Source of the DNA: Escherichia coli
GTDB taxonomy: Bacteria > Pseudomonadota > Gammaproteobacteria > Enterobacterales > Enterobacteriaceae
Strand: one strand, 5' to 3'
Assembly (NCBI RefSeq): GCF_001677475.2
Contig: NZ_CP015229.1
DNA length: 64,000 bases
Shown here: positions 1,364 through 24,438 of the stretch, one piece after another
Numbering within the stretch: the first letter of the stretch is position 1
Layout: each line of letters begins with the position of its first letter
Translations under genes and position numbers: made by a program
The notes under the pieces: model-generated
Told to the model about the DNA's origin: nothing
Databases searched by the model: none
Seen by the model: the letters and a program-made list of their open reading frames with translations, nothing else

Positions 1364-1831
1364 ATGAAGAAAATCGTGGTGGCGGGCGTGGTCAGCGCCG
1401 TTCTGGCGTTGGTGGTGGGGGCCGGAGCTGGATGGAGTGTCTGGCATCATTATGCTGGAAAAGGAAAACCGACTGCCGCCGCGCAGACGGAAACGGTGGA
1501 AACCCTGGATGAAAGTAAAAGCGTGTTTGTGACGTTGCCGGAAACCATTGTCACGCTGCATGACAACAACGGCGCGGACCATTATTTGTCGGCGGAATTA
1601 GTGATGGTAGTCGCCAGTGACAAAGAAGCGGAAAAAATAAAACATCAGGAGCCGCTGTATCAAAGTATTGCAGTTGAATGCCTGACGGAAATGAAATTTG
1701 AAGATTTGCGTGGCATGAAAATATCTGCCATCCGCAAACTGATTTCTGACGCGTTAAAGAAAGATCTTCAGCGTCGCAAAATGAGCGCACCGTATAAGGA
1801 TTTGCTGGTGAAAAAAGTGGTCTTCCAGTAA
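1364..1831 (+). CDS. lafF: Flagellar basal-body-associated protein, FliL-like (LafF)
   Basis: 155 aa, N-terminal transmembrane helix (IVVAGVVSAVLALVVGAG), FliL-like size, position between fliK-like and sigma-28-like genes. Confidence 0.65.
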   Translation: MKKIVVAGVVSAVLALVVGAGAGWSVWHHYAGKGKPTAAAQTETVETLDESKSVFVTLPETIVTLHDNNGADHYLSAELVMVVASDKEAEKIKHQEPLYQSIAVECLTEMKFEDLRGMKISAIRKLISDALKKDLQRRKMSAPYKDLLVKKVVFQ

Positions 1832-1850
1832 TCACCAGGCGGATATAAAT

Positions 1851-2567
1851 ATGCTACAGGATGTATTCGAGTCAGAAGAATTTGCTGCCACACCGGTATT
1901 AACCCCGCAGCAGGAGAGCCACTACTTGCAGGCCTATTTACCGTTGGTGCGTAAAGTGGTGCGGCAACTTGCCCCGCAGTGTAATTGCATTATTGACCGT
2001 CAGGATATGGAACAAACGGCGTTAATGGGGCTGCTTAACGCCATTCGTCGCTATGGGCAGCCGGATGAAGGTTTTGCGGGCTATGCCGTGCACCGTATTC
2101 GCGGCGCGATCCTGGATGAGCTGCGCGCTCTCGACTGGCGACCGCGCCAGCTGCGACAGAAATATCATCAGATGAAAGACCTGATTCGCGAAACGCGTAA
2201 AAAACTGGGTCACGAACCGGAGTGGTCAGAACTGGCCGTGGAAGGGATCTCGCATGAAGATTATCTCGAATATCAGCAACTGGAAGGGGCGGAAACACTC
2301 GCCAGTCTGGACGAACTGCTGAACGGTGAAGGGGCAGGCATTCCGCTTGTTGGCAGGGAACTGGAAGATCAGTTTGTCACCCAGCAAATGTTGCAACAGG
2401 CGCTTTCACAATTAAGCGAAAAAGAGCAACTGATCCTCTCCATGTATTACCAGCATGAGATGAATCTCAAAGATATTGCGCTGGTATTAGGGCTAACCGA
2501 GGCCCGAATTTGTCAACTGAATAAACAGATCGCGCAGAAAATTCGTGATTTTGTCTATCCGAATTAA
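1851..2567 (+). CDS. lafS: Sigma-28 (FliA-family) sigma factor for the lateral flagellar system (LafS)
   Basis: 238 aa; sigma-70 region 2-like segment and region 4 HTH (LSEKEQLILSMYYQHEMNLKDIALVLGLTEARICQL). Confidence 0.85.
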   Translation: MLQDVFESEEFAATPVLTPQQESHYLQAYLPLVRKVVRQLAPQCNCIIDRQDMEQTALMGLLNAIRRYGQPDEGFAGYAVHRIRGAILDELRALDWRPRQLRQKYHQMKDLIRETRKKLGHEPEWSELAVEGISHEDYLEYQQLEGAETLASLDELLNGEGAGIPLVGRELEDQFVTQQMLQQALSQLSEKEQLILSMYYQHEMNLKDIALVLGLTEARICQLNKQIAQKIRDFVYPN

Positions 2568-2579
2568 AGTGAAGAAATT

Positions 2580-3443
2580 ATGCAAAAAATATTAGGTTTA
2601 CTGGTGGTGCTCGGCTGCGTATTTGGCGGTTATTTTGAAGCGGGCGGGCAATTAGTGGCTATCTGGCAACCGGCGGAGATGATCATTATTTTGGGTGCCG
2701 GTTTCGGGGCGATGATTATTGGTAACCCGAAACATGTGCTGAAAGAGATTGCCCATCAAATTAAAGGCGTGATCAGTAAAAAACAGCTTGGGCCGGAATT
2801 TCAGCGCCAGCTATTAATGTGCCTGTATGAGTTGCTCGAAATGGTGCAAAACGGCGGCCTGCGCATGCTGGATCAGCATATCGAGCAGCCGGAGGAGAGC
2901 ACTATTTTCCAGAAATACCCGCTGGTGTTAACCCAGAAACGGCTGGTGACCTTTATTGCCGATAACTTTCGCCTGATGGCGATGGGTAAGATTGACGCTC
3001 ATGAACTGGAAGGCATTCTCGATCAGGAACTGGACACCGCTGAAGAGTCGCTGTTAACGCCGTCGCGCTCGCTGCAACGTACCGCCGAAGCGATGCCGGG
3101 ATTTGGTATTTGTGCAGCAGTGTTGGGGATCATCATCACCATGCAGTCGATTGATGGATCTATCGCCCTGATTGGCCTGAAAGTGGCGGCAGCGCTGGTA
3201 GGGACGTTTTTAGGCGTCTTTATCTGCTACTGCCTGATGGACCCGCTCGCCAACGCCATGGAACAACAGGCGCGGGCGGAGCATTCATTGTTGGAGTGCG
3301 TGCGTACCGTGCTGGTGGCGCAGGCGGGCGGTAAACCGACGCTGCTGGCGGTGGACGCCGGGCGTAAGCTGCTGCATCTGGCGTCCAAACCGACCTTCGC
3401 CAACCTCGACGCGTGGGTGAATGCGATGCTGGAGCAAGAATAA
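2580..3443 (+). CDS. lafT: Flagellar stator protein, MotA-like (LafT)
   Basis: 287 aa, multiple transmembrane helices, MotA/TolQ/ExbB-type C-terminal membrane segment; immediately followed by a MotB-like gene. Confidence 0.8.
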   Translation: MQKILGLLVVLGCVFGGYFEAGGQLVAIWQPAEMIIILGAGFGAMIIGNPKHVLKEIAHQIKGVISKKQLGPEFQRQLLMCLYELLEMVQNGGLRMLDQHIEQPEESTIFQKYPLVLTQKRLVTFIADNFRLMAMGKIDAHELEGILDQELDTAEESLLTPSRSLQRTAEAMPGFGICAAVLGIIITMQSIDGSIALIGLKVAAALVGTFLGVFICYCLMDPLANAMEQQARAEHSLLECVRTVLVAQAGGKPTLLAVDAGRKLLHLASKPTFANLDAWVNAMLEQE

Positions 3444-3445
3444 GC

Positions 3446-4369
3446 ATGAGAAAGACGGGCAACCGCCGCGAGCGTGGGGCAAAAACCACCATCGTCCGGC
3501 GGCAGATCAAAAAGAATCATGCCGGGCATCACGGCGGGGCGTGGAAGGTGGCGTTTGCCGACTTTACTTTGGCAATGATGGCGCTGTTTATGACCCTGTG
3601 GATTGTCAACAGCGTCAGTAAATCCGAGCGTGAAAGTATTATCGCCGCGCTGCACGGGCAGTCGATTTTTAACGGTGGCGGGCTGTCGCCGTTAAATAAA
3701 ATCAGCCCGCCTCATCCGCCGAAACCTGCCACCGTGGCGGTGCCGGAAGAGACGGAGAAGAAAGCGCGCGACGTCAACGAGAAAACGGCGCTACTGAAGA
3801 AGAAATCTGCCACCGAGCTTGGAGAGCTGGCAACCAGTATCAACACCATTGCCCGTGATGCGCATATGGAAGCGAATCTGGAGATGGAGATTGTCCCGCA
3901 GGGATTACGCGTGCTGATTAAAGACGACCAGAACCGCAATATGTTTGAACGCGGCAGCGCGAAGATTATGCCGTTCTTTAAAACGCTGCTGGTGGAGTTA
4001 GCGCCAGTGTTCGACTCGCTCGATAACAAAATTATTATTACCGGGCATACTGATGCGATGGCCTACAAAAGCAATATCTACAACAACTGGAACCTTTCGG
4101 GCGATCGCGTGCTTTCGGCCCGTCGGGTGCTGGAAGAGGCCGGAATGCCGGAAGATAAAGTGATGCAGGTGAGCGCGATGGCGGACCAGATGTTGCTGGA
4201 TGCCAAAAATCCGCAAAGCGCGGGCAACCGGCGCATTGAGATTATGGTGCTGACTAAAAGCGCGTCCGATACGCTGTATCAATACTTTGGTCAGCATGGG
4301 GATAAAGTGGTGCAGCCGCTGGTGCAAAAGCTGGATAAGCAGCAGGCGCTTTCGCAGCGAACGCGTTAA
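3446..4369 (+). CDS. lafU: Flagellar stator protein, MotB-like with OmpA-type peptidoglycan-binding domain (LafU)
   Basis: Single N-terminal TM (WKVAFADFTLAMMALFMTLWIV) and C-terminal OmpA-like domain (IITGHTDAMAY...NRRIEIMV). Start chosen at the ATG 3446, 2 nt after the lafT stop; the longest ORF begins at 3413. Confidence 0.8.
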   Translation: MRKTGNRRERGAKTTIVRRQIKKNHAGHHGGAWKVAFADFTLAMMALFMTLWIVNSVSKSERESIIAALHGQSIFNGGGLSPLNKISPPHPPKPATVAVPEETEKKARDVNEKTALLKKKSATELGELATSINTIARDAHMEANLEMEIVPQGLRVLIKDDQNRNMFERGSAKIMPFFKTLLVELAPVFDSLDNKIIITGHTDAMAYKSNIYNNWNLSGDRVLSARRVLEEAGMPEDKVMQVSAMADQMLLDAKNPQSAGNRRIEIMVLTKSASDTLYQYFGQHGDKVVQPLVQKLDKQQALSQRTR

Positions 4370-4405
4370 ATGCTGAATCTTTACGCATTTCTCAAACCCT
4401 GAAAT

Positions 4406-4425
4406 CACTGTATACTTTACCAGTG
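4406..4425 (+). promoter_or_regulatory. LexA (SOS) box upstream of dinB
   Basis: CACTGTATACTTTACCAGTG fits CTG-N10-CAG, about 15 bp upstream of the dinB ATG. Confidence 0.85.
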
Positions 4426-4439
4426 TTGAGAGGTGAGCA

Positions 4440-5495
4440 ATGCGTAAAATCATTCATGTGGATATGGACTGCTTTTTCGCCGCGGTGGAGATGCGCGACA
4501 ATCCCGCCCTGCGCGATATCCCTATTGCTATTGGCGGCAGCCGCGAACGTCGGGGGGTGATCAGCACCGCCAATTATCCTGCGCGTAAATTTGGCGTACG
4601 TAGCGCTATGCCGACAGGGATGGCGCTCAAATTATGCCCACATCTCACCTTGCTTCCGGGGCGCTTTGACGCCTACAAAGAAGCCTCAAATCATATCCGT
4701 GAAATCTTCTCGCGCTACACCTCGCGCATTGAACCGTTGTCACTGGATGAAGCCTATCTCGATGTCACCGATAGCGTCCATTGCCACGGTTCTGCGACCC
4801 TCATCGCCCAGGAAATCCGCCAGACGATCTTCAACGAGCTGCAACTGACGGCGTCTGCGGGCGTGGCACCAGTAAAGTTTCTCGCCAAAATCGCCTCCGA
4901 CATGAATAAACCCAACGGCCAGTTTGTGATTACGCCGGCAGAAGTTCCGGCATTTTTACAAACCTTGCCGCTGGCAAAAATTCCCGGCGTCGGCAAAGTC
5001 TCGGCGGCAAAACTGGAAGCGATGGGGCTACGGACCTGCGGTGATGTGCAAAAGTGTGATCTGGTGATTCTGCTTAAACGCTTTGGCAAATTTGGCCGCA
5101 TTTTGTGGGAGCGTAGTCAGGGGATTGACGAGCGCGACGTTAACAGTGAACGGTTGCGAAAATCCGTCGGCGTGGAACGCACGATGGCGGAAGATATTCA
5201 TCACTGGTCTGAATGTGAAGCGATTATCGAGCGGCTGTATCCTGAACTTGAACGCCGTCTGGCAAAGGTAAAACCTGATTTACTGATTGCCCGCCAGGGG
5301 GTGAAATTAAAGTTCGATGATTTTCAGCAAACCACTCAGGAGCATGTCTGGCCGCGGCTGAATAAAGCTGACTTAATCGCCACCGCGCGTAAAACCTGGG
5401 ATGAACGCCGTGGCGGGCGCGGTGTGCGTCTGGTGGGGCTGCATGTGACGTTGCTTGACCCGCATATGGAAAGACAACTGGTGCTGGGATTATGA
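4440..5495 (+). CDS. dinB: DNA polymerase IV (Y-family translesion polymerase)
   Basis: 351 aa; N-terminus [33 protein letters not shown] is the E. coli DinB sequence as recalled. Confidence 0.97.
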
Positions 5496-5546
5496 TGTAT
5501 ACTATTATGTCTATTCTGGTGTGCATTATTATGAGGGGATCACTGT

Positions 5547-5840
5547 ATGCATCGAATTCTCGCTGAAAAATCGGTCAATATCACTGAGTTACGTAAAAAC
5601 CCAGCTAAATACTTTATTGATCAACCGGTTGCGGTTCTTTCTAATAATCGCCCCGCAGGATATCTCTTAAGTGCCAGCGCATTTGAAGCGTTAATGGACA
5701 TGCTTGCTGAACAAGAGGAGAAAAAACTGGTGAAGGCGCGCTTCCGTCCGAGTGCCGCAAGATTAGAGGAAATTACACGCCGCGCTGAACAATATCTTAA
5801 TGATATGACGGATGATGATTTCAATGACTTTAAGGAATAA
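5547..5840 (+). CDS. yafN: Type II antitoxin YafN
   Basis: 97 aa, Phd/YefM-like antitoxin, immediately upstream of yafO in the dinB operon. Confidence 0.88.
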   Translation: MHRILAEKSVNITELRKNPAKYFIDQPVAVLSNNRPAGYLLSASAFEALMDMLAEQEEKKLVKARFRPSAARLEEITRRAEQYLNDMTDDDFNDFKE

Positions 5841-5842
5841 GG

Positions 5843-6241
5843 ATGCGGGTATTCAAAACAAAACTTATTCGCCTGCAACTTACAGCAGAGGAACTTGATG
5901 CGTTAACGGCGGATTTTATTTCCTATAAGCGTGACGGTGTTTTGCCAGATATATTTGGTCGCGATGCACTCTACGACGACTCGTTTACCTGGCCATTAAT
6001 CAAATTTGAGCGAGTTGCTCATATTCATCTGGCAAATGTGAATAATCCATTTCCGTCACAGTTGCGCCAATTCAGCAGAACGAATGACGAAGCGCATTTG
6101 GTATATTGTCAGGGTGCGTTTGATGAGCAAGCATGGTTGCTCATTGCCATTCTGAAACCTGAACCTCATAAACTGGCTCGAGATAACAACCAAATGCATA
6201 AAATTGGGAAAATGGCAGAAGCGTTTCGCATGCGTTTTTGA
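5843..6241 (+). CDS. yafO: Type II toxin YafO (ribosome-dependent mRNA interferase)
   Basis: 132 aa, 2 nt after the yafN stop; conserved dinB-yafN-yafO-yafP order. Confidence 0.88.
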   Translation: MRVFKTKLIRLQLTAEELDALTADFISYKRDGVLPDIFGRDALYDDSFTWPLIKFERVAHIHLANVNNPFPSQLRQFSRTNDEAHLVYCQGAFDEQAWLLIAILKPEPHKLARDNNQMHKIGKMAEAFRMRF

Positions 6242-6250
6242 ATTTATATT

Positions 6251-6703
6251 ATGAATAACATACAAATAAGAAACTATCAGCCTGGCGATTTTCAGCAACT
6301 ATGCGCTATTTTCCTTAGAGCGGTTACGATGACCGCCAGTCAGCATTATTCACCACAACAAATTGCCGCCTGGGCGCAGATTGACGAATCTCGCTGGAAG
6401 GATAAACTCGCGAAATCACAAGTGCGGGTTGCCATCATTAATGCACAACCGGTTGGTTTTATTTCCCGCATTGAACATTATATCGATATGTTATTTGTTG
6501 ACCCTGAATACACCCGCCGTGGGGTTGCCAGCGCTTTGTTAAAACCTTTGATTAAGTCTGAATCCGAACTTACAGTGGACGCCAGCATAACCGCAAAACC
6601 ATTTTTTGAACGTTATGGTTTTCAGACAGTTAAGCAGCAGCGCGTTGAATGCCGGGGAGCGAGGTTTACTAATTTTTATATGCGTTATAAACAGCAACAT
6701 TAA
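6251..6703 (+). CDS. yafP: GNAT-family N-acetyltransferase YafP
   Basis: 150 aa, GNAT-like motif region (RRGVASALL); last gene of the dinB operon. Confidence 0.88.
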   Translation: MNNIQIRNYQPGDFQQLCAIFLRAVTMTASQHYSPQQIAAWAQIDESRWKDKLAKSQVRVAIINAQPVGFISRIEHYIDMLFVDPEYTRRGVASALLKPLIKSESELTVDASITAKPFFERYGFQTVKQQRVECRGARFTNFYMRYKQQH

Positions 6704-6872
6704 ATCCAGCTTGCAATGAAAATAACGCCCGCCTAATATGTGCGCGTTTTGTTATTCCACAAACTGCAAGGAGGTAAATCATGACAAATCCTTTATCAAT
6801 GACTCTTTGCAGACCTTTCCAGGATTAATTCTTTTTTTTCTTGCCCTGGATCCGTCTGCCATTTCCTGATTT

Positions 6873-7008
6873 TTATATTTATATACTCTAAATAATTCGA
6901 GTTGTAGGAAGGCGACAAGCGAGTGAATCCCTAGGAGCTTACGAAAGTAAGTGACTGGGGTGAACGAACGCAGTCGTAGTACATGCAACTTGAAGTATGA
7001 CGAGTATA
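6873..7008. repeat. ERIC/IRU element (enterobacterial repetitive intergenic consensus), copy 1
   Basis: Contains GTGAATCCCTAGGAGCTTAC and AAGTAAGTGACTGGGGTGAACG, matching the ERIC primer sites; imperfect palindrome; second copy at 25753-25880. Confidence 0.85.
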
Positions 7009-7009
7009 A

Positions 7010-8161
7010 ATGGAATGGTACATGGGCAAATATATTCGTCCCTTATCCGATGCGGTATTTACCATCGCATCTGATGACCTGTGGATCGAGAGTTTAGCGA
7101 TCCAACAATTACACACCACGGCAAATTTACCCAACATGCATCGCGTAGTGGGGATGCCAGATTTACACCCCGGACGTGGCTACCCGATTGGCGCAGCGTT
7201 CTTCTCCGTAGGTCGTTTTTACCCGGCGCTGGTCGGCAATGATATCGGCTGCGGCATGGCGCTATGGCAAACAGATATTCTCGTGCGCAAGTACAACGCC
7301 GATAAGTTTGAAAAGCGATTATCAGCTTTGGATGACGTTGCTGAAGAAAGCTGGCTGGAGGAAAACCTGCCGTCAGCGTTTGCACTACATCCGTGGCGCA
7401 GCTCGCTTGGCTCCATCGGCGGTGGCAATCACTTCGCTGAACTGCAACAGATTGATCAAATTATCGACGCGGAACTGTTTGCACTGGCAGGTCTGGATGC
7501 GCAGCATCTGCAACTGCTGGTTCATAGCGGATCGCGTGGTCTGGGGCAGTCTGTTTTACAAAAACATATTTCCACATTCTCGCATCATGGTTTGCCGGAA
7601 GGCAGTGATGACGCGATGCGCTATATCGTGGAACATGACGATGCGCTGGCGTTTGCTCGCATTAATCGCCAGATGATCGCCCTGCGCATAATGCAACAGG
7701 TGAAGGCTACGGGAAGTCCGGTTCTGGATGTGGCGCATAACTTCATTACCGCGAGTAAAATTGGCGATCAACAAGGCTGGTTACACCGTAAAGGGGCTGC
7801 GCCAGATGACAGTGGCCTGGTGGTTATCCCCGGTTCACGCGGTGATTACTCATGGCTTGTACAGCCTGTCAGTAGCGAAGAAATATTGCATTCGCTGGCG
7901 CATGGGGCAGGACGTAAATGGGGGCGCACCGAGTGCAAAGGACGGCTGGCAGCGAAATACACGGCGACGCAACTTACGCGTACTGAACTTGGCAGCAGGG
8001 TAATTTGTCGCGATAAACAGCTCATCTTTGAAGAGGCGCCGCAGGCCTATAAATCGGCAGAAAGCGTGGTGCAATGTCTGGTGCAGGCCGGTTTAATTAT
8101 TCCTGTCGCGCGGCTGCGCCCGGTGCTGACACTCAAAAACAGTGGAGGGAAAAAAGGATGA
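7010..8161 (+). CDS. RtcB-family RNA ligase paralogue (RtcB2-like), full length
   Basis: 383 aa; GGGNHF motif and HNF motif region typical of RtcB; stop overlaps the prfH start (ATGA at 8158-8161). The K-12 counterpart (ykfJ) is a pseudogene. Confidence 0.8.
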
Positions 8162-16664: not shown

Positions 16665-16740
16665 GCCGATATAGCTCAGTTGGTAGAGCAGCGCATTCGT
16701 AATGCGAAGGTCGTAGGTTCGACTCCTATTATCGGCACCA
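16665..16740 (+). tRNA. thrW: tRNA-Thr (anticodon CGU)
   Basis: 76 nt GCCGATATAGCTCAGTTGGTAGAGCAGCGCATTCGTAATGCGAAGGTCGTAGGTTCGACTCCTATTATCGGCACCA; cloverleaf with CGT anticodon and encoded CCA end. Confidence 0.95.
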
Positions 16741-16754
16741 TTTAAATCAATAAG

Positions 16755-17021
16755 TTACACATCATTAGTACCTTCCTTATTTCTTGACTGGGACAAATTT
16801 GGGACCGATGGGTTCAGAATCGAGTCTATTTGCCGTGCGTGTTCGGTAAGGTGATTAGGTGCGAGGTGAGCATATCGACGAACCATTTCAAGAGTTTCCC
16901 ATCCTCCCATTTCTGTAAGTGCAAGAAGAGAAACACTGGACTGAACCAGCCTGCTTGCCTTTGCTATCAAAGTACCTTGAGGACCAGATGATTTCTGGCG
17001 ATATTTACAGCGCGTCCGCAA
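16755..17021 (-). pseudogene. Tyrosine-recombinase (phage/P4-type integrase) C-terminal remnant
   Basis: Only about 50 C-terminal residues are integrase-like ([34 protein letters not shown], with the catalytic Tyr region); no N-terminal or core domains upstream; adjacent to the tRNA attachment site. Confidence 0.65.
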
Positions 17022-17574: not shown

Positions 17575-17917
17575 AGGGCGTCTCCTGTAACGGTTTATTA
17601 TGTCCGCCACTAGAGAGGCTAATCTCATGGGGGGCGGAACCGGACGGGGTTAGCCTTACCGGCGTTACAGGAAACCGGCGCGTCTTGCGACGCCCCCGCC
17701 CGGCCCGCCATTGAGGTGTAGCCGAACGCACGACACAAAAAAGACGCTGGTGCGTCAAGTGTCGCCTGTAACGGTTTTCAGGAGGCTAATCCCGACGCCT
17801 GATTTTGCAGGCGCGGGAGAAAGATACTGCGATTGGTCATGAGTGGCAAGGGCTACATCCTGTTTACCGACATCTCACGCAAAAATACCCTGATTATTAA
17901 TAGCGAAAATCAGTTTC

Positions 17918-20900
17918 TTATTTTGGCGGTAGCTTTTTGCGGTTCTTTGCCAATTGGAATCCTTCAGGTAACGGTTTGAATTTATCGCCGCCTTTAGGCC
18001 AGCGTTTTGCCCTGCTCTGAAATGCCCTTAACGAGTCGATATCCAGTGTTGCAGCGATCACAAAGTCATTATCGCCGCCCTTCACACGAGCAATATCACG
18101 CATAAAGGGTTCTTTTGCCGGGGAACGTACGCGACTATCGCCGTATTTTCGGTTATTCACTAAAATGGTATAGGCATGAATATCCAGCGCTGCTGATTCA
18201 ATCAACGATGCAAACGTATCCAGATCTTTATTCCAGCTCAATACCATTAATGCATCGAGCGCGCCCTGAAAACGGATCCTCGCTTTACTATTCTGGAGTT
18301 CAGAGCAAATCATAACGCCAAAATTGACGCCGTGATGAATATATACCGGCTTACGTTGTTTAACATTAAGTGTCGAGTCCCAAGACTTACCATAAGTTGA
18401 AAATAATGCCTCATCTTCACCTACGGCGGGTTCCAGCTTGGGTTGCCATATTTTGACACTCGCTGGATAGCCGAGTCTGTTATCTGAAAGGACAAGTACG
18501 GCCTCACTCTTCAGTTGATTATCGCCTAAGTGGCGGTATTCTGTTCCCGCAATTAGACTGATACCCGCCGAACTCAAACGATCAGCAATACTGTTAACCC
18601 AGCGTAACGGGATTGAAAGCTCGGGGAATAAAACATAATCAGGTTTAGGAGATAGTTTCAATGTTGCATTAACCAGTTCAGAAATCCGCTGGTACCTTGA
18701 ACGGGACAAGTTAGATTTATTGCAGGCCATTTTAGCCCAGTCGTCTTCCTCTGTTTTAATGCTGGTTAGCGCAACGACAATTTTATGTTTCCTGTCAGTG
18801 CCAATATGAATGAATTTCTTAGGCCGAGCTTTTTTTGTCGCTTCATCTGAGTCCTGCTCCGATGCTAGTAACGTCGGTTTGATCCATACACCGCGTAATG
18901 CTTGAGTATATTTTGCCCAAACGGTGGACGGTCTCTCATCTGGTTTTTTGTCGGATGTAGAGGGTAATCCAACACATTCGGGGGCCAGTTCTGATATTTC
19001 AGCGGGAGTTAAAGGACGTGTAGGGAAAATGTAAGGTAGGTAACTTTCGTTCTTACGATTTCCTTTAGCCACTTTTTCCAGTCGGGTATTCTTGGTTGAT
19101 TTCAAAAATAGCTTAATAACGTCAATATCAATAAGCGATGAGTCCCTCATTAATTTCAGTATTTTAACTTCTTTTTTACGATCACGCTGATTAACAAGTT
19201 TTTCTGCCGACTGACTCTTTACGATCTGTTTATAAGGTTCCTTTGCTAAATCAGCTCGAGCTACCAATGGCGCTTTTAAATAAAAATCTGCTGAATCAAA
19301 GCGAAGATCCAGTAAATCCTTTAGATTTGTCAGACTTTGTGAAATATGATTAAAAAATGTATCCGCAAGGCACTCTTCTTTCTTTGAACGTTTATCAAGA
19401 AATAATCTGTCAGGACTGTAATATCGTGTCGCTGCATCAACAAATAGCCAGCTTAATGTGCCTTTTATACAGCGCCAAAGATCATTTACTGCTCGAGTTT
19501 TGCAACCATTTATAGTCACTTCCTTACCTGAAGTAATCACCGATGCCAACAGGTTGATGGACTCGTAAGCTTTAAGTACAATTTTTTCCGCGTGCTGCCA
19601 TTCATTCATACTGATAGCAAAGCCAAGCAGCCTTGGCAGATAACTAAAATGTGCAAATAGATTATCAGCCCTAAGAATATGGTTGTAGGCAAACTGATAA
19701 AACTCTTCCCGCTGTTCTTTCCATTCACTTGGAGACAGATCTCGTGCCAGTGTTTCAACGTAGCGTAATTGCAGTGACCAGCCCAAACGACGAATGGTTA
19801 ATCCATCCGCACGGCGCAGAGTATCGGCATTTTCACCTACACTACCGGCAGCGGAAAGGACTTTAGCTGCGGTGGAGTGTTCCAGTTGATCCGGTGAAGG
19901 CATCAAGCGGTGTTCACTAGAAAGCTCGTAGATCTCCTTTTCGATACTGTCGAGCAGATCTATTCCTGCCCTCCCTTGAAGCACGAAAAGTTTTTGCTTA
20001 TCGGATTGTAACTGGATGGTGGTCTTACCCTGGAAATGCTCGCCCTGCTGTATTTGCCATATTTGTTTTTTCTCGTTTTTCAGATAAACGCAATCATTGC
20101 CAAGCCTATCTTGCAGCAATAACATAAATTCGTGATTATTAGTAATTTTACCTGTATCGCGTATTACAAGGAACATATCATCGACATAACGACCGTAGTG
20201 AATTGGCGACAGTTTTTCAATGACTAATTTATCCCAATGGTGTAGCAATATATTGGAAATGATCCGACTGGCTGTTAATCCAATGACCAGACCACCATTA
20301 ATAACAGGTGTTTTGTACGCTATTTTTTTTCCAAATGCCGCTGCGCCGTCAGACCAGTGCTTTAAGAATACAGCTAACTGTGCAGTAAACGCTTTTTCAT
20401 GCTCAGTCAGTTTTATGTTTAGTGTGTTATAGAGATCATCAGAGGTTATAGCCAGTGGATCAATAAAATGATAGTAACTTTTTAAATCCAGTGAGGCGGC
20501 GATAATGTCACGATCTTTTTCCAACTCGTCACGTATAGCTTTTAAGCCATCACCACGCCATTTTTGGTAGGGCTGGAAATAGGGGCTAAAAGAACCCACG
20601 GCACTGATATGGAATGGATTATCCTGCTCATTGCTAAATAATTCATCATTACGAATACGTTTTAGCCGCGCGCCATAACAACAGTTGTCTAAGCTGGCAT
20701 CAAATTTATGCCCGACCATATTAATCCATAGTGCAGAGATAATGTGACTATCAACCGGGAAGTCACCAATAATACGAAACTCTGGTATCAGATCAAAATT
20801 ATTAAATAAATGGTCGGCTGCTCGTTTAGGATTAGAAAAGTGGACGTGTCCATTTTGGAATTCATGTTTTTTCTTTGTGGTTAATTTTTTCGGTAACAAA

Positions 20901-21127
20901 CGAAATTTGCCAATCAACTTCTTATTGCTACTGAATCCATCTTCGCTCTGCAAAATATCTAAGAGTTCTTGCAGGTTTTCAATTAATTCCTGCTCATACT
21001 CGGCAAATTTGATAGCAACAGGAAATGTATTCTCAAAGAAGCTATCGGCTTTGGCTTTCCGGTAAGCGACCAGAAGGTCTTCAATCGTCAGATCATCCCA
21101 GCCAGTGAAAGTTGCCTGATATGTCAT
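17918..21127 (-). CDS. Reverse transcriptase fused to a C-terminal nitrilase (CN-hydrolase) domain; UG/Abi-type defence-associated RT (DRT type 1 / UG1-like architecture)
   Basis: 1069 aa. RT motifs: motif A ASLDLKSYYHFID, motif B GLVIGLTASRIISNILL, motif C YGRYVDDMFLV (about aa 310-320). C-terminal ~280 aa carry a nitrilase-like Glu/Cys pattern (VLFPELSIP ... GVMICSELQ). AT-rich gene in an island next to a tRNA. Confidence 0.85.
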   Translation of the reverse strand: MTYQATFTGWDDLTIEDLLVAYRKAKADSFFENTFPVAIKFAEYEQELIENLQELLDILQSEDGFSSNKKLIGKFRLLPKKLTTKKKHEFQNGHVHFSNPKRAADHLFNNFDLIPEFRIIGDFPVDSHIISALWINMVGHKFDASLDNCCYGARLKRIRNDELFSNEQDNPFHISAVGSFSPYFQPYQKWRGDGLKAIRDELEKDRDIIAASLDLKSYYHFIDPLAITSDDLYNTLNIKLTEHEKAFTAQLAVFLKHWSDGAAAFGKKIAYKTPVINGGLVIGLTASRIISNILLHHWDKLVIEKLSPIHYGRYVDDMFLVIRDTGKITNNHEFMLLLQDRLGNDCVYLKNEKKQIWQIQQGEHFQGKTTIQLQSDKQKLFVLQGRAGIDLLDSIEKEIYELSSEHRLMPSPDQLEHSTAAKVLSAAGSVGENADTLRRADGLTIRRLGWSLQLRYVETLARDLSPSEWKEQREEFYQFAYNHILRADNLFAHFSYLPRLLGFAISMNEWQHAEKIVLKAYESINLLASVITSGKEVTINGCKTRAVNDLWRCIKGTLSWLFVDAATRYYSPDRLFLDKRSKKEECLADTFFNHISQSLTNLKDLLDLRFDSADFYLKAPLVARADLAKEPYKQIVKSQSAEKLVNQRDRKKEVKILKLMRDSSLIDIDVIKLFLKSTKNTRLEKVAKGNRKNESYLPYIFPTRPLTPAEISELAPECVGLPSTSDKKPDERPSTVWAKYTQALRGVWIKPTLLASEQDSDEATKKARPKKFIHIGTDRKHKIVVALTSIKTEEDDWAKMACNKSNLSRSRYQRISELVNATLKLSPKPDYVLFPELSIPLRWVNSIADRLSSAGISLIAGTEYRHLGDNQLKSEAVLVLSDNRLGYPASVKIWQPKLEPAVGEDEALFSTYGKSWDSTLNVKQRKPVYIHHGVNFGVMICSELQNSKARIRFQGALDALMVLSWNKDLDTFASLIESAALDIHAYTILVNNRKYGDSRVRSPAKEPFMRDIARVKGGDNDFVIAATLDIDSLRAFQSRAKRWPKGGDKFKPLPEGFQLAKNRKKLPPK

Positions 21128-21422
21128 GCGTTATCGTCCTTAGATTAAAGTCTGTACAGAATTAGCCAGCCGTTTCATGCCCGAAGGAGGTGCTCTTGAC
21201 ACCAGTAATCCATCAGTGAGGCTGGCAATAATTTTGATTTGTATCCATGTTACACGCTCCCCGCAACCAGTCCGAGCATATATTTGTCACATTTTTCCCG
21301 AAAGTGATTAAGTTTGAATTTTTTGTTTAATGTCGATTTTTAGTCGACAAAATGAGGAATAAGTAAATTATTTCTTGCTGTGGCGTATCCCTGAACCTAC
21401 ACTGGTTTAAATATTTGTACTA

Positions 21423-22226
21423 ATGTCTATTCAGGGGCGACATTTGCCAAATTATCTAAACTGGCTGATGCAGAATACGCTACCCGGTCAGGTGCTGCTC
21501 CAGTCATGGCTTACCCGCAACGGCGTAGATCGTAAGCTCTCTTACCTCTATGTCCAGAATGGCTGGCTCAGGCGGATCGCTCACGGCGTATACTGCCGGA
21601 CGGGTCGTGAACCGGACTGGGTGGACGCGGTTTACTGCCTGCAAACACAGTGGGAAAAGCCAGTACGGGTGGCGGGGCTAACCAGCCTTGCGCTTCAGGG
21701 CCATGCGCACTATACCGAACCGGGTAAGCCGCAAATCTGGCTCGCGCTTCCGGCTTACGTCAAACTGCCGGGATGGTTTGCTGCCTTCGAACAATCTGCA
21801 ACATTTATCACGCTGTATACATCGGGCCTTACCGTTGATGTCACGTCATTTACTACGGAACTGAAAATTGGCGACCGGCAGTTAGCAGGCAGTGCCCCGG
21901 AACTGGCCGCGTATGAGATCGCCTGCGGCGTTCCTTCGTTGATATCGTTCGAACATGCCGATGCTCTGTTTCAGGGGATGAATCTTCTCAGCCCGCGTAA
22001 ATTGCAGGCGTTACTCTGCGCCAGTCATTCGGTTAAAACCAACCGGGTGATGCTTTACCTTGCCCGGCGTAATGGACACCCTTATTTTCAGTATATTGAT
22101 CAAAGCGGTATAGAAACAGGTACGGGAAAGCGGCAAATCATACCCGGCGGCTGGCTGGAGCCGGATTATCAAATTACTGTTCCACGCGAATTTAAACCGG
22201 AAGGAGTCGAAGATGGATCTGCGTGA
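21423..22226 (+). CDS. AbiEi-family antitoxin / transcriptional regulator (type IV TA, abortive infection)
   Basis: 267 aa; N-terminal winged-helix pattern (LTRNGVDRKLSYLYVQNGWLRRIAHGVYCRTG) typical of AbiEi; overlaps the downstream nucleotidyltransferase gene by 14 nt. Confidence 0.65.
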   Translation: MSIQGRHLPNYLNWLMQNTLPGQVLLQSWLTRNGVDRKLSYLYVQNGWLRRIAHGVYCRTGREPDWVDAVYCLQTQWEKPVRVAGLTSLALQGHAHYTEPGKPQIWLALPAYVKLPGWFAAFEQSATFITLYTSGLTVDVTSFTTELKIGDRQLAGSAPELAAYEIACGVPSLISFEHADALFQGMNLLSPRKLQALLCASHSVKTNRVMLYLARRNGHPYFQYIDQSGIETGTGKRQIIPGGWLEPDYQITVPREFKPEGVEDGSA

Positions 22227-23133
22227 TAGCTATACCCGGCAGGTCAAACTGTTGATGGCCGCTCTGCCGCATGTGGCGAAGGAGTCCTGTTTCGCGTTGA
22301 AAGGCGGCACGGCAATCAATTTGTTTGTGCAGGATTTTCCCCGTCTGTCGGTGGATATCGATCTGGCGTATAAGACTTTTGCGGATCGCGATACCGATTT
22401 GACGGCGATCAACGACGCTTTGAAGAGAATTACTGCATCGCTGAACAGTAAACCGGGGATTACCGCGATTCGGCAGGAAAATAAAACGGATGAAAAGCGC
22501 ATCATTGTGAATACGGCTGATGCCCAGATTAAGATCGAGGTTAGTCCGGTCTGGCGTGGGCTGTTGTTGCCTCCGGCAGAAATGTCGGTGTGCGAACGTG
22601 TGGAAATGGAGTATGGCTTCACCACTATGAGTGTCGTTTCGCTGGCGGATCTTTATGGCGGTAAAATCTGCGCAGCGCTTGATCGTCAGCACCCGCGCGA
22701 TCTGTTTGATGTGCTGAATATGCTGGAGAAACCGGGACTGATGCGGGAGATCTTTGACGGTTTTCTTTGTTATCTGGCAGGCCATCCCCGCCCCATTGCC
22801 GAGTTGCTGGCCCCAAACTGGGATACAGAGCGGATCACGACGCTGTATGCCCAGGAATTTTCGGGGATGACTCAGCAGGAAACGTCGCTGGAATCGCTGC
22901 TGTCAGTAACGACTTTGCTGCCGCAGGCGTTGAAGTCACATCTTACGGATCTGGATCGCGAGTTCTTGCTCAGTTTTAAGCAAAACAGCCCTGACTGGTC
23001 GCGGTATCGCTATCCTGAAATTCAGCATCTTCCGGCTATTCGCTGGAAGCAACGCAATCTGGCGGTGCTTAAAGATAAAAATCCGGCGAAGTATGTGGCG
23101 GCGGTGAATAAGCTAGAGAGGGTGCTGGAGTAA
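22213..23133 (+). CDS. AbiEii/AbiGii-family nucleotidyltransferase toxin (DUF1814)
   Basis: 306 aa; N-terminal LKGGTAINLF and DIDLAY motifs of the AbiEii nucleotidyltransferase fold; translationally coupled to the upstream AbiEi-like gene. Confidence 0.75.
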   Translation: MDLRDSYTRQVKLLMAALPHVAKESCFALKGGTAINLFVQDFPRLSVDIDLAYKTFADRDTDLTAINDALKRITASLNSKPGITAIRQENKTDEKRIIVNTADAQIKIEVSPVWRGLLLPPAEMSVCERVEMEYGFTTMSVVSLADLYGGKICAALDRQHPRDLFDVLNMLEKPGLMREIFDGFLCYLAGHPRPIAELLAPNWDTERITTLYAQEFSGMTQQETSLESLLSVTTLLPQALKSHLTDLDREFLLSFKQNSPDWSRYRYPEIQHLPAIRWKQRNLAVLKDKNPAKYVAAVNKLERVLE

Positions 23134-23538
23134 TATTCTTAGCGCTGTTCAGGGACTCTGAATTGGGCCATGATGCTTTGGTTATATGAATAACTTCGTG
23201 GCCATAACTCAAACATATTCATTTAATTCAATACATAGCACCATCGAGTAAGAGATCGCTGAGTCATTAGACGATCTCTGCTCGTGGAAATACGAAACTA
23301 TCTCTTTCCAAAGCTGATCTGAATAACATTATCTGGAGCATCATTATTAGACCTGATGATCTCATGCTCAATAAAATCCCCCCATTTCAAAAAAAGATCC
23401 CGTAATTTTTCCGCCTGCTGCCCGACCTGATAAGTTCTGATTAATCTGTCTTTCGGAACATGATTCAACAGAAGTTCTATAAGCCGTTCTGGCGCATCCA
23501 GATACTCAGCACAGCCTGTAGAGTGCAGGTGCAGACAT

Positions 23539-24438
23539 TTAAGCCAATTGCTGCCGCCATTCCTTGACGTGGTCAATCAGGGCGCGGAGCTTTGGTGCAA
23601 TATTGCGACGCTGTGGGAAATACAGATAGAAGCCCGGAAATTGTGGAAGAAAGTCATCAAGCAGCGATACAAGCTTACCGCTTTCAATATATGGCCTGAA
23701 CGTTTCCTGAGTGGCAATTGTTATTCCTCCGCCGGCAAGAGCCAGCCTCAACATCAGACGCAGATCATTCGTCGTAATCTGCGGTTCAATCGCAAGGTCG
23801 AAAGCTCTACCGTTTTCTTCAAATGGCCAGCGATAAGGAGCAACCTCCGGGGACTGACGCCAGCCGATACACTTATGATTCACAAGTTCACGCGGGTGAA
23901 CAGGTGTGCTGTTGGCTGCGAGATAGGAGGGAGAGGCAACGACCATTTCACGCTGCCTGGCGGTAAGGGGAACAGCAATCATGTCTTTTTCAATGACCTC
24001 TCCGAGCCTTACGCCAGCATCGTAACCTGCGGCAACGATATCGAATTCCTCATCCGTGACAACAATATCAAGCGTAACGGCTGGATTGGCAGCTGCAAAC
24101 GAAGCGATTAGCGGACCTGAAAGAAATTCTTCTGCTATCGACGTCACCGCGATTCTGAGATGTCCACGTGGTACATGGTCAGAAACCATCTCTTCGAACG
24201 CTGCCTCAATACCGGATAAAGGTAATGACAACGATTTATGCAGCCGTTCTCCCGCTTCCGTCAAATTAACTGAGCGCGTGGTCCGCATTACAAGCATTGT
24301 CCCGAATGCATCTTCAAGGCGTCTTATTCCCTGACTGACCGCTGAACGGGTAACGCCCAGTCGTGCGGCGGCTTTACTGAAATTACTCTCTTCTGCTACC
24401 GCGATAAAAATGGGTAAAAGATTAAGATCGATTTTCAT
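23539..24438 (-). CDS. LysR-family transcriptional regulator
   Basis: 299 aa; N-terminal HTH (FSKAAARLGVTRSAVSQGIRRLE) and LysR substrate-binding domain; divergent from an SDR gene. Confidence 0.85.
   Translation of the reverse strand: MKIDLNLLPIFIAVAEESNFSKAAARLGVTRSAVSQGIRRLEDAFGTMLVMRTTRSVNLTEAGERLHKSLSLPLSGIEAAFEEMVSDHVPRGHLRIAVTSIAEEFLSGPLIASFAAANPAVTLDIVVTDEEFDIVAAGYDAGVRLGEVIEKDMIAVPLTARQREMVVASPSYLAANSTPVHPRELVNHKCIGWRQSPEVAPYRWPFEENGRAFDLAIEPQITTNDLRLMLRLALAGGGITIATQETFRPYIESGKLVSLLDDFLPQFPGFYLYFPQRRNIAPKLRALIDHVKEWRQQLA

Follow-up and report, generated by a model that had tools for sequence, protein, structure and literature searches.

A probable intact and autonomous AbiE-family toxin-antitoxin operon of the AbiEi_3/DUF2893 and AbiEii/DUF1814 subtype in Escherichia coli

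Introduction

The founding member of the AbiE family, L. lactis AbiE, is plasmid-borne, and its ability to cause abortive infection has been demonstrated. AbiEii of S. agalactiae uses UTP/CTP to modify tRNA, and AbiEi neutralises it by inducing the phosphorylation of its T65 (10.64898/2026.01.19.700257), and AbiE is reclassified in the same 2026 preprint as type VII, which is defined by antitoxin-induced auto-phosphorylation of the toxin. When introduced into E. coli, S. agalactiae AbiE gives no protection against 32 coliphages. In M. tuberculosis, MenA4 (Rv2827c) autoregulates through inverted repeats located within about 131 bp upstream (PMC7319586). DUF2893, which is now termed AbiEi_3, has already been given as a COG5340 partner of COG2253 genes (PMC3985639). 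The demonstrated activity of the AbiEi_3-type subfamily is that of a toxin-antitoxin system only, in Serratia (PMC7725324). In Serratia AbiE-2, whose antitoxin is of the AbiEi_3 type, the toxin reduces the viable count of E. coli 10^6-fold and perturbs tRNA levels, and the cells are rescued by the cognate antitoxin only (PMC7725324). S46 of this AbiEi_3-paired toxin is mapped in the same paper to S78, the phospho-acceptor of MenT3.

In this study, a gene pair located next to an RT gene in a 64-kb stretch of E. coli DNA (the whole stretch is termed the window) is analysed. The locus is, with high probability, an intact and autonomous AbiE-family toxin-antitoxin operon of the AbiEi_3/DUF2893 and AbiEii/DUF1814 subtype.

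Organization of the locus

The two genes of the pair, and the ribosome-binding site that lies between their start codons, are as follows.

21444..22226, plus strand: abiEi, AbiEi_3-type predicted antitoxin/repressor, 260 aa from TTG (Pfam, PADLOC, AlphaFold model)
22213..23133, plus strand: abiEii, DUF1814 predicted nucleotidyltransferase toxin, 306 aa (Pfam, PADLOC, motifs, fold)
22201..22206, plus strand: Shine-Dalgarno AAGGAG of abiEii, within the 3' end of abiEi and 6 nt before ATG 22213, read from the sequence

The ORF scan of the window confirms that the two genes run in the same direction and overlap by 14 nt, as proposed in the sequence-only reading, with the abiEi ORF extending from either 21423 or 21444 to 22226 and the abiEii ORF from 22213 to 23133. 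The proposed divergent arrangement of this pair and the RT-nitrilase gene (17918..21127, minus strand, 1069 aa) across an AT-rich gap is confirmed as well. The gap (21128-21422) is 295 bp long and its GC content is 39.0%, as compared to 49.4% for the window and 52-54% for abiEi and abiEii. In the homologues the genes overlap as well, by either 8 or 14 nt, and the internal AAGGAG ribosome-binding site is conserved. The dN/dS values against four genera are 0.06-0.12 for both genes (0.08-0.10 for abiEi and 0.06-0.12 for abiEii). This result indicates that, at the sequence level, both abiEi and abiEii are under strong purifying selection.

The AbiEi_3_N, AbiEi_3 and AbiEii (PF08843) profiles all match in the HMM search that the sequence-only reading had suggested as a check, far beyond chance. 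NCBIfam gives a model for neither the AbiEi nor the AbiEii protein, and Rfam gives no family within 21128-23300. The membership of the predicted AbiEi and AbiEii in the family is assigned from profile, motif and fold. Thus, the assignment of the pair to the AbiE family stands, while the 'type IV' label that accompanied it derives from Dy et al. 2014 (PMC3985639) and is under revision to type VII.

AbiEii toxin

AbiEii matches the Pfam family PF08843 (AbiEii/DUF1814) at residues 14-221 (1.9e-35) and the PADLOC model PDLC02290 at residues 5-305 (7.8e-117). Its motifs, as defined by Dy et al. 2014 (PMC3985639; hG[G/S]x15DhD, motif III, and motif IV with +DxxD), were examined in an alignment of 20 homologues with 53-91% identity. 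Motifs I and II (hG[G/S]x15DhD) correspond to K30-G31-G32-x15-D48-I49-D50 and are invariant, so that the KGGTA(I/L) and DxD sequences noticed in the second protein are found as K30-G31-G32-T33-A34-I35 and D48-I49-D50, both invariant in the 20-sequence alignment. Motif III (K151...R158) is also invariant and has the same 7-residue spacing as in K173...R180, and so is motif IV (R162-D163-L164-F165-D166, +DxxD) in all 20 homologues. R44, which is located four residues ahead of the first Asp and is the counterpart of R63, is invariant. The nucleotidyltransferase residues, the absence of which would have spoken against the assignment of AbiEii, are therefore all present. S46 is invariant in the 20 homologues and is located two positions before the D48xD50 metal site, a result that concerns the presence of the residue alone. 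By spacing, S46 corresponds to T65 of S. agalactiae AbiEii, S78 of MenT3 and S46 of Serratia AbiE-T2. The Escherichia AbiEii proteins do not have the last three residues that are present in other genera.

The model of AbiEii has a pLDDT of 87.8 and a pTM of 0.84. DUF1814 toxins account for all nine of its top PDB matches, namely MenT4 (6Y56), JHP933 (4OK0) and TglT/MenT3, with a probability of 1.00 and a TM of about 0.5. PDB sequence searches, either with the single sequence or with the 20-sequence profile, give nothing meaningful, and the identities of the AbiE proteins to their solved relatives are just 12-16%. Because the identities are so low and the PDB sequence searches are empty, the residue equivalences given here derive from motif spacing and fold, not from a residue-level structural alignment. 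Thus, the kinship of the modelled proteins with MenT/AbiE structures is visible at the fold level only.

AbiEi antitoxin

AbiEi matches AbiEi_3_N (9.8e-29) and AbiEi_3 (4.9e-34) in Pfam, as well as a PADLOC model (7.6e-79). The pLDDT of its AlphaFold model is 88.5, and the significant PDB fold matches of this model are only Rv2827c (E 6e-9) and S. agalactiae AbiEi (6Y8Q, E 2e-5). A two-domain AbiEi-type protein, with a winged helix N-terminal domain and a C-terminal antitoxicity domain, is thus encoded directly upstream of the toxin gene. No counterpart of D85/E86/I87, the essential loop of S. agalactiae AbiEi, is mappable on AbiEi of the window.

The first protein is therefore AbiEi-type, as initially read, but its initially given length of 267 aa probably does not hold. 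ATG 21423, from which the 267-aa version would start, is Escherichia-specific and is replaced by ATT in Photorhabdus, Pectobacterium and Buttiauxella. TTG 21444 is common to all genera compared, is the start used by PGAP, and is preceded by a conserved AGAGG/AGGGG sequence. AbiEi is most likely 260 aa in length with TTG 21444 as its start, because this codon is conserved across genera, agrees with PGAP and follows AGAGG/AGGGG.

Upstream control region

The features of the region upstream of abiEi are as follows.

21220..21443, plus strand: regulatory region travelling with the AbiE pair, which in relatives is a divergent promoter region shared with hsdR (blastn homology, alignments)
21331..21349, no strand: palindrome TGTCG-N9-CGACA (site 1), candidate AbiEi operator (sequence pattern)
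21375..21403, plus strand: candidate sigma-70 promoter TTGCTG-17 nt-TACACT, inferred from sequence and alignments
21424..21442, no strand: palindrome TGTCT-N9-CGACA (site 2), candidate autoregulatory operator, spanning the Shine-Dalgarno sequence directly before the TTG start

According to blastn, the homology with the E. coli island of the hsdR type (L009) starts at position 21220 of the window and continues through both AbiE genes with 93% identity, and in the alignment with Eco889 and Pectobacterium the region is conserved from about 21233 on. The -10 position of the candidate promoter is conserved, being TATAAT in Photorhabdus and TAAGAT in Pectobacterium. Site 1 overlaps the -35 hexamer TCGACA of a promoter-like site (21344-21371) obtained by a promoter scan; it is kept in Pectobacterium and is degenerate in some E. 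coli. The site 2 block TGTCYATYMAGRGRCGACATTTG is near-invariant across four genera. The pattern TGTCK-N9-CGACA, which was derived post hoc from these same two sites, matches sites 1 and 2 only in the 64 kb. These sequence patterns weakly suggest that sites 1 and 2 are AbiEi operators.

The conserved palindrome at the ribosome-binding site was also examined as a possible leader RNA hairpin, and its folding is no better than that of shuffled sequences (z = -0.51). A 24+24-nt inverted repeat at 21389-21436, resembling the 23-bp repeats of characterised AbiE promoters, was considered as another candidate. It has 17/24 matches in the window, just 12-14/24 elsewhere, and 12-13/24 outside Escherichia. 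This repeat is not relied on, because its scores are low in other strains and genera.

Distribution of the pair and the thrW island

DNA nearly identical to the AbiE pair (90-98%) is present in 832 of the 5,426 complete E. coli genomes (about 15%), in which PGAP already names the proteins AbiEi and AbiEii. Plasmid matches to the pair are just two, one of which is partial, and the pair is therefore essentially chromosomal in E. coli. The two-gene unit is kept in Photorhabdus, Pectobacterium, Buttiauxella and Salmonella, in ICE and island contexts, and one clade of homologues is located among ICE transfer genes. The surroundings of the pair across genomes include R-M, Kiwa, parts of Lamassu and RT. 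The pair occurs alone or next to other systems, independently of RT.

In the window, the AbiE genes lie within a decayed P4-like element that is located at tRNA-Thr (thrW). This element has integrase fragments on both sides as well as integrase and HTH pseudogenes, its interior is deleted, and its cargo slot is occupied by either hsdRMS or RT. No att-type direct repeats bounding the island, from tRNA-Thr to the distal integrase fragment, are found.

A deletion junction is located in the gap between the RT gene and abiEi.

21146..21219, no strand: deletion junction, in which 15 codons remain from the end of a KwaB-like gene (21146-21190, minus strand) and about 30 bp are junction sequence

The homology to the Salmonella (L018) and Yersinia (L017) loci runs 62 bp past the RT start in blastn, and of the KwaB-like gene tblastn detects only the C-terminal remnant KRLANSVQTLI*. 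The full order is seen in the Salmonella locus, AbiE<->hsdRMS-KwaA-KwaB-like-RT, in which two other systems separate AbiE from RT. As judged from these alignments, the adjacency of RT and AbiE in the window arose by a deletion of ~7.4 kb that removed a type I R-M and a Kiwa-like system. The deletion ends about 200 bp before abiEi, and the regulatory region of abiEi is spared. The idea that the RT has been orphaned from obligatory partners was considered and dropped, because the deleted genes belong to independent systems, namely type I R-M and a Kiwa-like KwaA/KwaB pair.

The deletion has joined the RT gene directly to what was the divergent control region of hsdR and abiE. This region contains the candidate operator at 21331-21349 (~200 bp from the RT start), and expression of RT might for this reason have come under the control of AbiEi in this E. 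coli lineage; in more general terms, AbiE may act as a selfish 'anchor' for the endpoints of deletions and cargo swaps in the thrW hotspot. This scenario is speculative and quite improbable. If it were true, the reverse-transcriptase defence would be coupled to the state of a toxin-antitoxin switch.

Possible roles of the pair

By analogy with characterised relatives, AbiEii would be a Pol-beta-type nucleotidyltransferase that adds nucleotides, probably pyrimidines, to tRNA 3' ends and thereby stops translation and growth. AbiEi would neutralise AbiEii, most likely by inducing auto-phosphorylation of S46, and may repress its own promoter through the upstream palindromes (candidates 21331-21349 and 21424-21442). 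Phage infection or loss of the locus would then upset the balance, such that the free toxin arrests the cell, and the outcome would be defence by abortive infection, maintenance of the island, or both.

A different possibility, that the RT-nitrilase works together with the AbiE pair in a single multi-gene defence system, is suggested by their divergent arrangement over a single 295-bp region and by the presence of the pair in 255 of the 260 E. coli genomes that have this RT; the two are also held within a single island in Salmonella, and a UG5-large RT of S. meliloti likewise adjoins an AbiEii-like gene (10.64898/2025.12.16.694600). However, the pair occurs without this RT in about 570 E. coli genomes, hsdRMS replaces the RT at the same site in another lineage, and no RT lies alongside the homologue pairs of four other contexts. 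Conversely, no AbiE is found within 6 kb of the RT homologues of Citrobacter, Yersinia, Vibrio and Alloalcanivorax (within 10 kb for Yersinia). Neither adjacency nor co-occurrence of RT and AbiE is conserved across lineages; in Salmonella two other systems stand between them, and their adjacency in the window is a product of deletion. In addition, a systematic analysis of UG5 neighbourhoods gives TM and nitrilase partners only (PMC9226505), and the S. meliloti AbiEii-like gene is also present in strains without the RT (10.64898/2025.12.16.694600). A single system is thus highly unlikely, and the RT is an incidental neighbour that represents a separately acquired system. The initial proposal of two mechanistically different systems in a defence-island arrangement agrees with these results. 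Partnership with the RT is not conserved (832 E. coli genomes for the pair, 260 for the RT), and the neighbours vary across other genera.

It is even less likely that the pair is decaying along with the rest of the degraded element and is a remnant without function. The surroundings are heavily decayed, as described above, and the three C-terminal residues of AbiEii are missing in Escherichia, but both ORFs are full length, all catalytic motifs are invariant, dN/dS is 0.06-0.12, the ribosome-binding site and leader are conserved, and the pair is kept in 832 genomes. The persistence of an intact pair between integrase fragments, while its surroundings decay and the cargo turns over between hsdRMS and RT, may instead mean that it is chiefly an addiction (stabilisation) module that holds the thrW island in the chromosome without meaningful phage resistance. 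AbiE stabilises plasmids (PMC3985639) and is reported to stabilise an ICE in S. suis (PMC11062541). The halt of the 7.4-kb deletion ~200 bp before abiEi, the homologue clade within ICE transfer genes and the failure of S. agalactiae AbiE against the 32 coliphages are consistent with this role. On the other hand, the founding L. lactis AbiE is an abortive-infection system, the related DUF1814 pairs SanaTA and RlegTA affect T7, and the pair is consistently found among defence systems (R-M, Kiwa, parts of Lamassu, RT). A role chiefly in addiction is a possibility to be kept in mind but is rather doubtful, and the two roles are not mutually exclusive. An intact toxin-antitoxin operon, which may serve defence, island retention or both, is the preferred reading.

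Comparison with known systems

The AbiE pair is real but ordinary, and its family is already known. Little weight is given to it as a discovery, because the family has been described since 2014, both genes are automatically annotated in hundreds of E. coli genomes and covered by PADLOC models at nearly full length, and a Serratia pair with this subtype of antitoxin is a validated toxin-antitoxin. The pair identifies the thrW site as a hotspot for defence systems within a decayed P4-like element, and the adjacent RT, which was separately acquired and brought close by deletion, is to be interpreted on its own terms. As a very common E. coli pair of the AbiEi_3 type, it provides a test case for the type VII auto-phosphorylation model and for the question of real phage defence.

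The pair shares with AbiEi-AbiEii of S. agalactiae and L. lactis the overlapping genes, which in the window are predicted to be bicistronic, hG[G/S]x15DhD and motifs III and IV with the same spacing, a Ser/Thr residue two positions ahead of the first catalytic Asp, and, as judged from the 6Y8Q match, a wHTH and CTD antitoxin fold. However, the antitoxin of the window belongs to AbiEi_3/DUF2893 and consists of 260 aa, whereas those of S. agalactiae and L. lactis belong to AbiEi_4/DUF4095 and consist of 195 aa; the genes overlap by 14 nt in the window and by 4 nt in S. agalactiae/L. lactis AbiE, and the identity is about 12%.

MenA3-MenT3 of M. tuberculosis (Rv1044-Rv1045, TakA-TglT) shares the DUF1814 fold with the toxin of the window. 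S78/D80/D82 of MenT3 correspond to S46/D48/D50 (S-x-D-x-D), and the spacing also pairs E146 with E109 and K189 with K151. Phosphorylation neutralises MenT3 itself, the target of which is the acceptor end of tRNA. MenA3-MenT3 differs from the window pair in that the identity is 14-16% and MenA3 does not bind to its own promoter, and the tRNA target specificity is likely to be different. Rv2827c-Rv2826c (MenA4-MenT4) of M. tuberculosis gives the best fold matches for both partners (E 1.3e-7 for the toxin model against 6Y56; about 280 columns for the antitoxin model against 1ZEL), and its antitoxin gene is likewise upstream of the toxin gene. It differs in that the identity is 15-16% and that it has four 23-bp repeats, as compared to two candidate 19-bp palindromes ~93 bp apart in the window.

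Serratia sp. ATCC 39006 AbiE-2 (AbiE-A2/AbiE-T2) resembles the window pair in having an AbiEi_3 antitoxin and a DUF1814 toxin with S46, encoded by two genes as a predicted operon in Enterobacterales, but is a different locus in a different host. Homologues of the window proteins from the genus Serratia show about 54-56% identity.

Gene organization and translation start of abiEi

The antitoxin gene abiEi and the toxin gene abiEii (AbiE pair) diverge from the gene for the UG5-type RT-nitrilase (RT). The ORFs are as follows.

17918-21127, minus strand: RT-nitrilase ORF (1069 aa)
21423-22226, plus strand: abiEi ORF, longest form (267 aa)
22213-23133, plus strand: abiEii ORF (306 aa)

The ORF list agrees with the sequence-only reading that abiEi and abiEii are co-directional and overlapping (by 14 nt), and that an AT-rich gap of 295 bp, with a GC content of 39.0% versus 49.4% window-wide, separates them from the RT gene. 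The ribosome-binding site of abiEii (AAGGAG, 22201-22206) is located within the 3' end of abiEi. The toxin size given in that reading, 306 aa, stands, but the antitoxin size, 267 aa, probably does not. The antitoxin is most likely composed of 260 aa, because TTG at 21444 is invariant across E. coli, Photorhabdus, Pectobacterium and Buttiauxella in the upstream-region alignment and is chosen as the start by PGAP and in the gene calls of every homologous locus, whereas ATG at 21423 is present only in Escherichia and is replaced by ATT in the other three genera. TTG at 21444 is preceded by a conserved AGAGG or AGGGG.

Family assignment

Both profile searches proposed from the sequence gave matches. 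The abiEi product matches Pfam AbiEi_3_N (9.8e-29) and AbiEi_3 (4.9e-34), and the abiEii product matches Pfam AbiEii (PF08843, 1.9e-35). PADLOC matches are near-full-length for both AbiEi (7.6e-79) and AbiEii (7.8e-117). The predicted KGGTA(I/L) and DxD motifs are found in the abiEii product as K30-G31-G32-T33-A34-I35 and D48-I49-D50. In the definition of Dy et al. (2014, PMC3985639), an AbiEii protein carries motifs I-II (hG[G/S]x15DhD), motif III with Lys and Arg, and motif IV of the form +DxxD. These motifs correspond to G31-G32-x15-D48-I49-D50 (with R44), K151...R158 and R162-D163-L-F-D166, and all four are invariant in an alignment of 20 homologues with identities down to 53%, so that none of the nucleotidyltransferase residues is missing. 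S46, two residues ahead of the first catalytic Asp, is likewise invariant in the 20 homologues. At this position S. agalactiae AbiEii (T65) and MenT3 (S78) accept the phosphate, and S46 of Serratia AbiE-T2, the toxin of the AbiE-2 system, is equivalent according to its authors' alignment.

The nine best PDB matches of the toxin model (pLDDT 87.8) are MenT4, H. pylori JHP933 and TglT/MenT3, each with a probability of 1.00. The antitoxin model (pLDDT 88.5) has only four significant PDB matches, all of which are chains of S. agalactiae AbiEi or of Rv2827c, the antitoxin partner of MenT4. Sequence-only PDB searches give no match for either protein, in keeping with identities of 12-16%. Profiles, motifs and folds thus support the overall reading of the pair as an AbiEi/AbiEii-like toxin-antitoxin system. 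Strong purifying selection acts on abiEi as well as abiEii, as dN/dS is 0.06-0.12 in comparisons with E. coli Eco889, Salmonella, Pectobacterium and Photorhabdus.

The AbiEii C-terminus is ...VLE* (306 aa) in all Escherichia copies and ...VLEQYF* (309 aa) in other genera. In this region of the window (23122-23145), the bases that follow are TAATATTC, and the three C-terminal residues look to have been lost in Escherichia through a CAA-to-TAA nonsense change.

Candidate regulatory sites upstream of abiEi

Inspection of the upstream region suggests the following candidate sites.

21331-21349: candidate operator 1, 19-bp palindrome TGTCK-N9-CGACA
21375-21403: candidate promoter, TTGCTG-17-TACACT
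21424-21442: candidate operator 2, 19-bp palindrome TGTCK-N9-CGACA, covering the ribosome-binding site

The 64 kb contain this pattern only at these two sites, with 3 strand-wise matches versus 0.15 expected, a statistic that is optimistic because the pattern was derived from the two sites counted. The palindrome at 21424-21442 is near-invariant in four genera, in which the proteins are only 74-89% identical to those of the window. That at 21331-21349 is kept in Pectobacterium and degenerate in some E. coli. The position of the candidate promoter is conserved, and its putative -10 sequence is TATAAT in Photorhabdus. A stable RNA hairpin as the cause of the conservation at 21424-21442 was rejected by a folding test.

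Relationship between the AbiE pair and RT

The AbiE pair lies within a larger integrative element, P4-like and decayed, at tRNA-Thr (thrW). Integrase fragments flank this island on both sides, and its features are as follows.

16665-16740: tRNA-Thr
16755-17021, minus strand: tyrosine-integrase fragment near tRNA-Thr
17627-17814, minus strand: C4 antisense RNA (73.7 bits) and isrK (68 bits), Rfam
23298-23576, minus strand: distal tyrosine-integrase fragment

The distal integrase is a near-full-length pseudogene in E. coli Eco889. An att-type direct repeat was not found between the two integrase fragments. The element includes an 'ash family' gene. A c4 a1/b1 target scores 43.8 bits in Rfam, slightly under the gathering score of 46.7. 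These RNA matches, all within 17627-17827 on the minus strand, lie immediately downstream of RT and overlap the 'ash family' ORF region. They are immunity RNA elements of the P4/P1 type, and their presence identifies the island as a P4-like satellite that has decayed.

The AbiE pair and RT, which PADLOC names RT_UG5-nitrilase, are two separate systems. The 1.7-kb AbiE pair is present in 832 of the 5,426 complete E. coli genomes (identity 90-98%, nearly always chromosomal), versus 260 E. coli genomes for this RT. E. coli Eco889, with the same thrW site and flanking remnants, has a type I R-M operon where the window has RT. Elsewhere the AbiE pair adjoins Lamassu-like genes, type I R-M, core genes or ICE transfer genes, and no AbiE is found within 6-10 kb of RT homologues (~70-76% identity) in Citrobacter, Yersinia, Vibrio and Alloalcanivorax. 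A published survey of the genes around UG5 RTs names TM and nitrilase partners only (PMC9226505). The proposal of a defence island with two different systems is borne out by this independent occurrence. At thrW, cargo turns over at a fixed position and AbiE is the constant element; depending on the E. coli lineage, the stretch from the ash-family gene to the AbiE pair contains either a type I R-M operon (1772-7738 of the hsdR-type E. coli island L009) or RT-nitrilase (17918-21127).

A distant UG5-large RT-nitrilase on S. meliloti RMO17 pSymA also adjoins an AbiEii-like gene, which is present in strains without the RT as well (10.64898/2025.12.16.694600). Although this is a further case, the second, of an RT inserted beside AbiE, both are common in defence islands and their adjacency there is probably coincidental.

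In Vibrio anguillarum and Alloalcanivorax (L015:4238-6004 and L016:3884-6004), a large ATPase gene lies upstream of the RT homologue, and its end overlaps the RT start by 4 nt. The ATPase is PtuA/SMC-like in the former and the PADLOC candidate PDC-S06/AAA_13 in the latter. These overlaps suggest that this RT clade sometimes functions as part of an ATPase-containing operon. The window RT has no ATPase partner of this kind.

The full composite island is seen in Salmonella (L018), where AbiEii-AbiEi_3 diverges from hsdR-hsdM-hsdS-KwaA-KwaB-like-RT. The corresponding sites in the window are as follows.

21128-21219: deletion junction, between RT (17918-21127, minus strand) and the AbiE-side homology
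21146-21190, minus strand: KwaB-like gene remnant, last 15 codons only

As judged from sequence comparison, the AbiE-RT adjacency is the scar of a ~7.4-kb deletion by which the R-M and Kiwa-like systems were lost, because the KwaB-like remnant is retained, homology to the Salmonella RT region extends 62 bp beyond the RT start, into this remnant, and that to the hsdR-type E. coli island starts at 21220, and hsdR and KwaA are absent from the entire 64-kb window. RT today sits behind the former hsdR/abiE divergent promoter region. AbiEi might conceivably regulate RT now, because the deletion set RT beside this putatively AbiEi-controlled region, but such control is improbable.

Proposed role and comparison with known systems

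For this AbiE pair, the analysis shows the layout of the putative operon, the predicted folds, the selection on both genes, and that the catalytic residues and the predicted phospho-acceptor are intact. By analogy with its relatives, the toxin would nucleotidylate the 3' ends of tRNA, so that translation stops. This is the mechanism of MenT3, as summarised in PMC7725324, and S. agalactiae AbiEii acts on tRNA with UTP/CTP (preprint 10.64898/2026.01.19.700257). The antitoxin would bind the toxin and induce its auto-phosphorylation, by which nucleotide binding would be abolished, and would also repress its own promoter via inverted repeats. On the basis of antitoxin-induced toxin auto-phosphorylation, the same 2026 preprint places AbiE in type VII instead of type IV. 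[quoted passage not shown]

The AbiE pair is a textbook module that standard annotation already recognises. PGAP names the products 'type IV toxin-antitoxin system AbiEi family antitoxin' and 'nucleotidyl transferase AbiEii/AbiGii toxin family protein', and a protein search gives homologues in thousands, most with the same type of label. DUF2893, today AbiEi_3, was counted among AbiEi homologues already in 2014 (PMC3985639). The antitoxin of AbiE-2 from Serratia sp. ATCC 39006 is also of the AbiEi_3 type, and the toxin of that system reduces E. coli viable counts 10^6-fold, disturbs tRNA levels and is counteracted only by its cognate antitoxin (PMC7725324).
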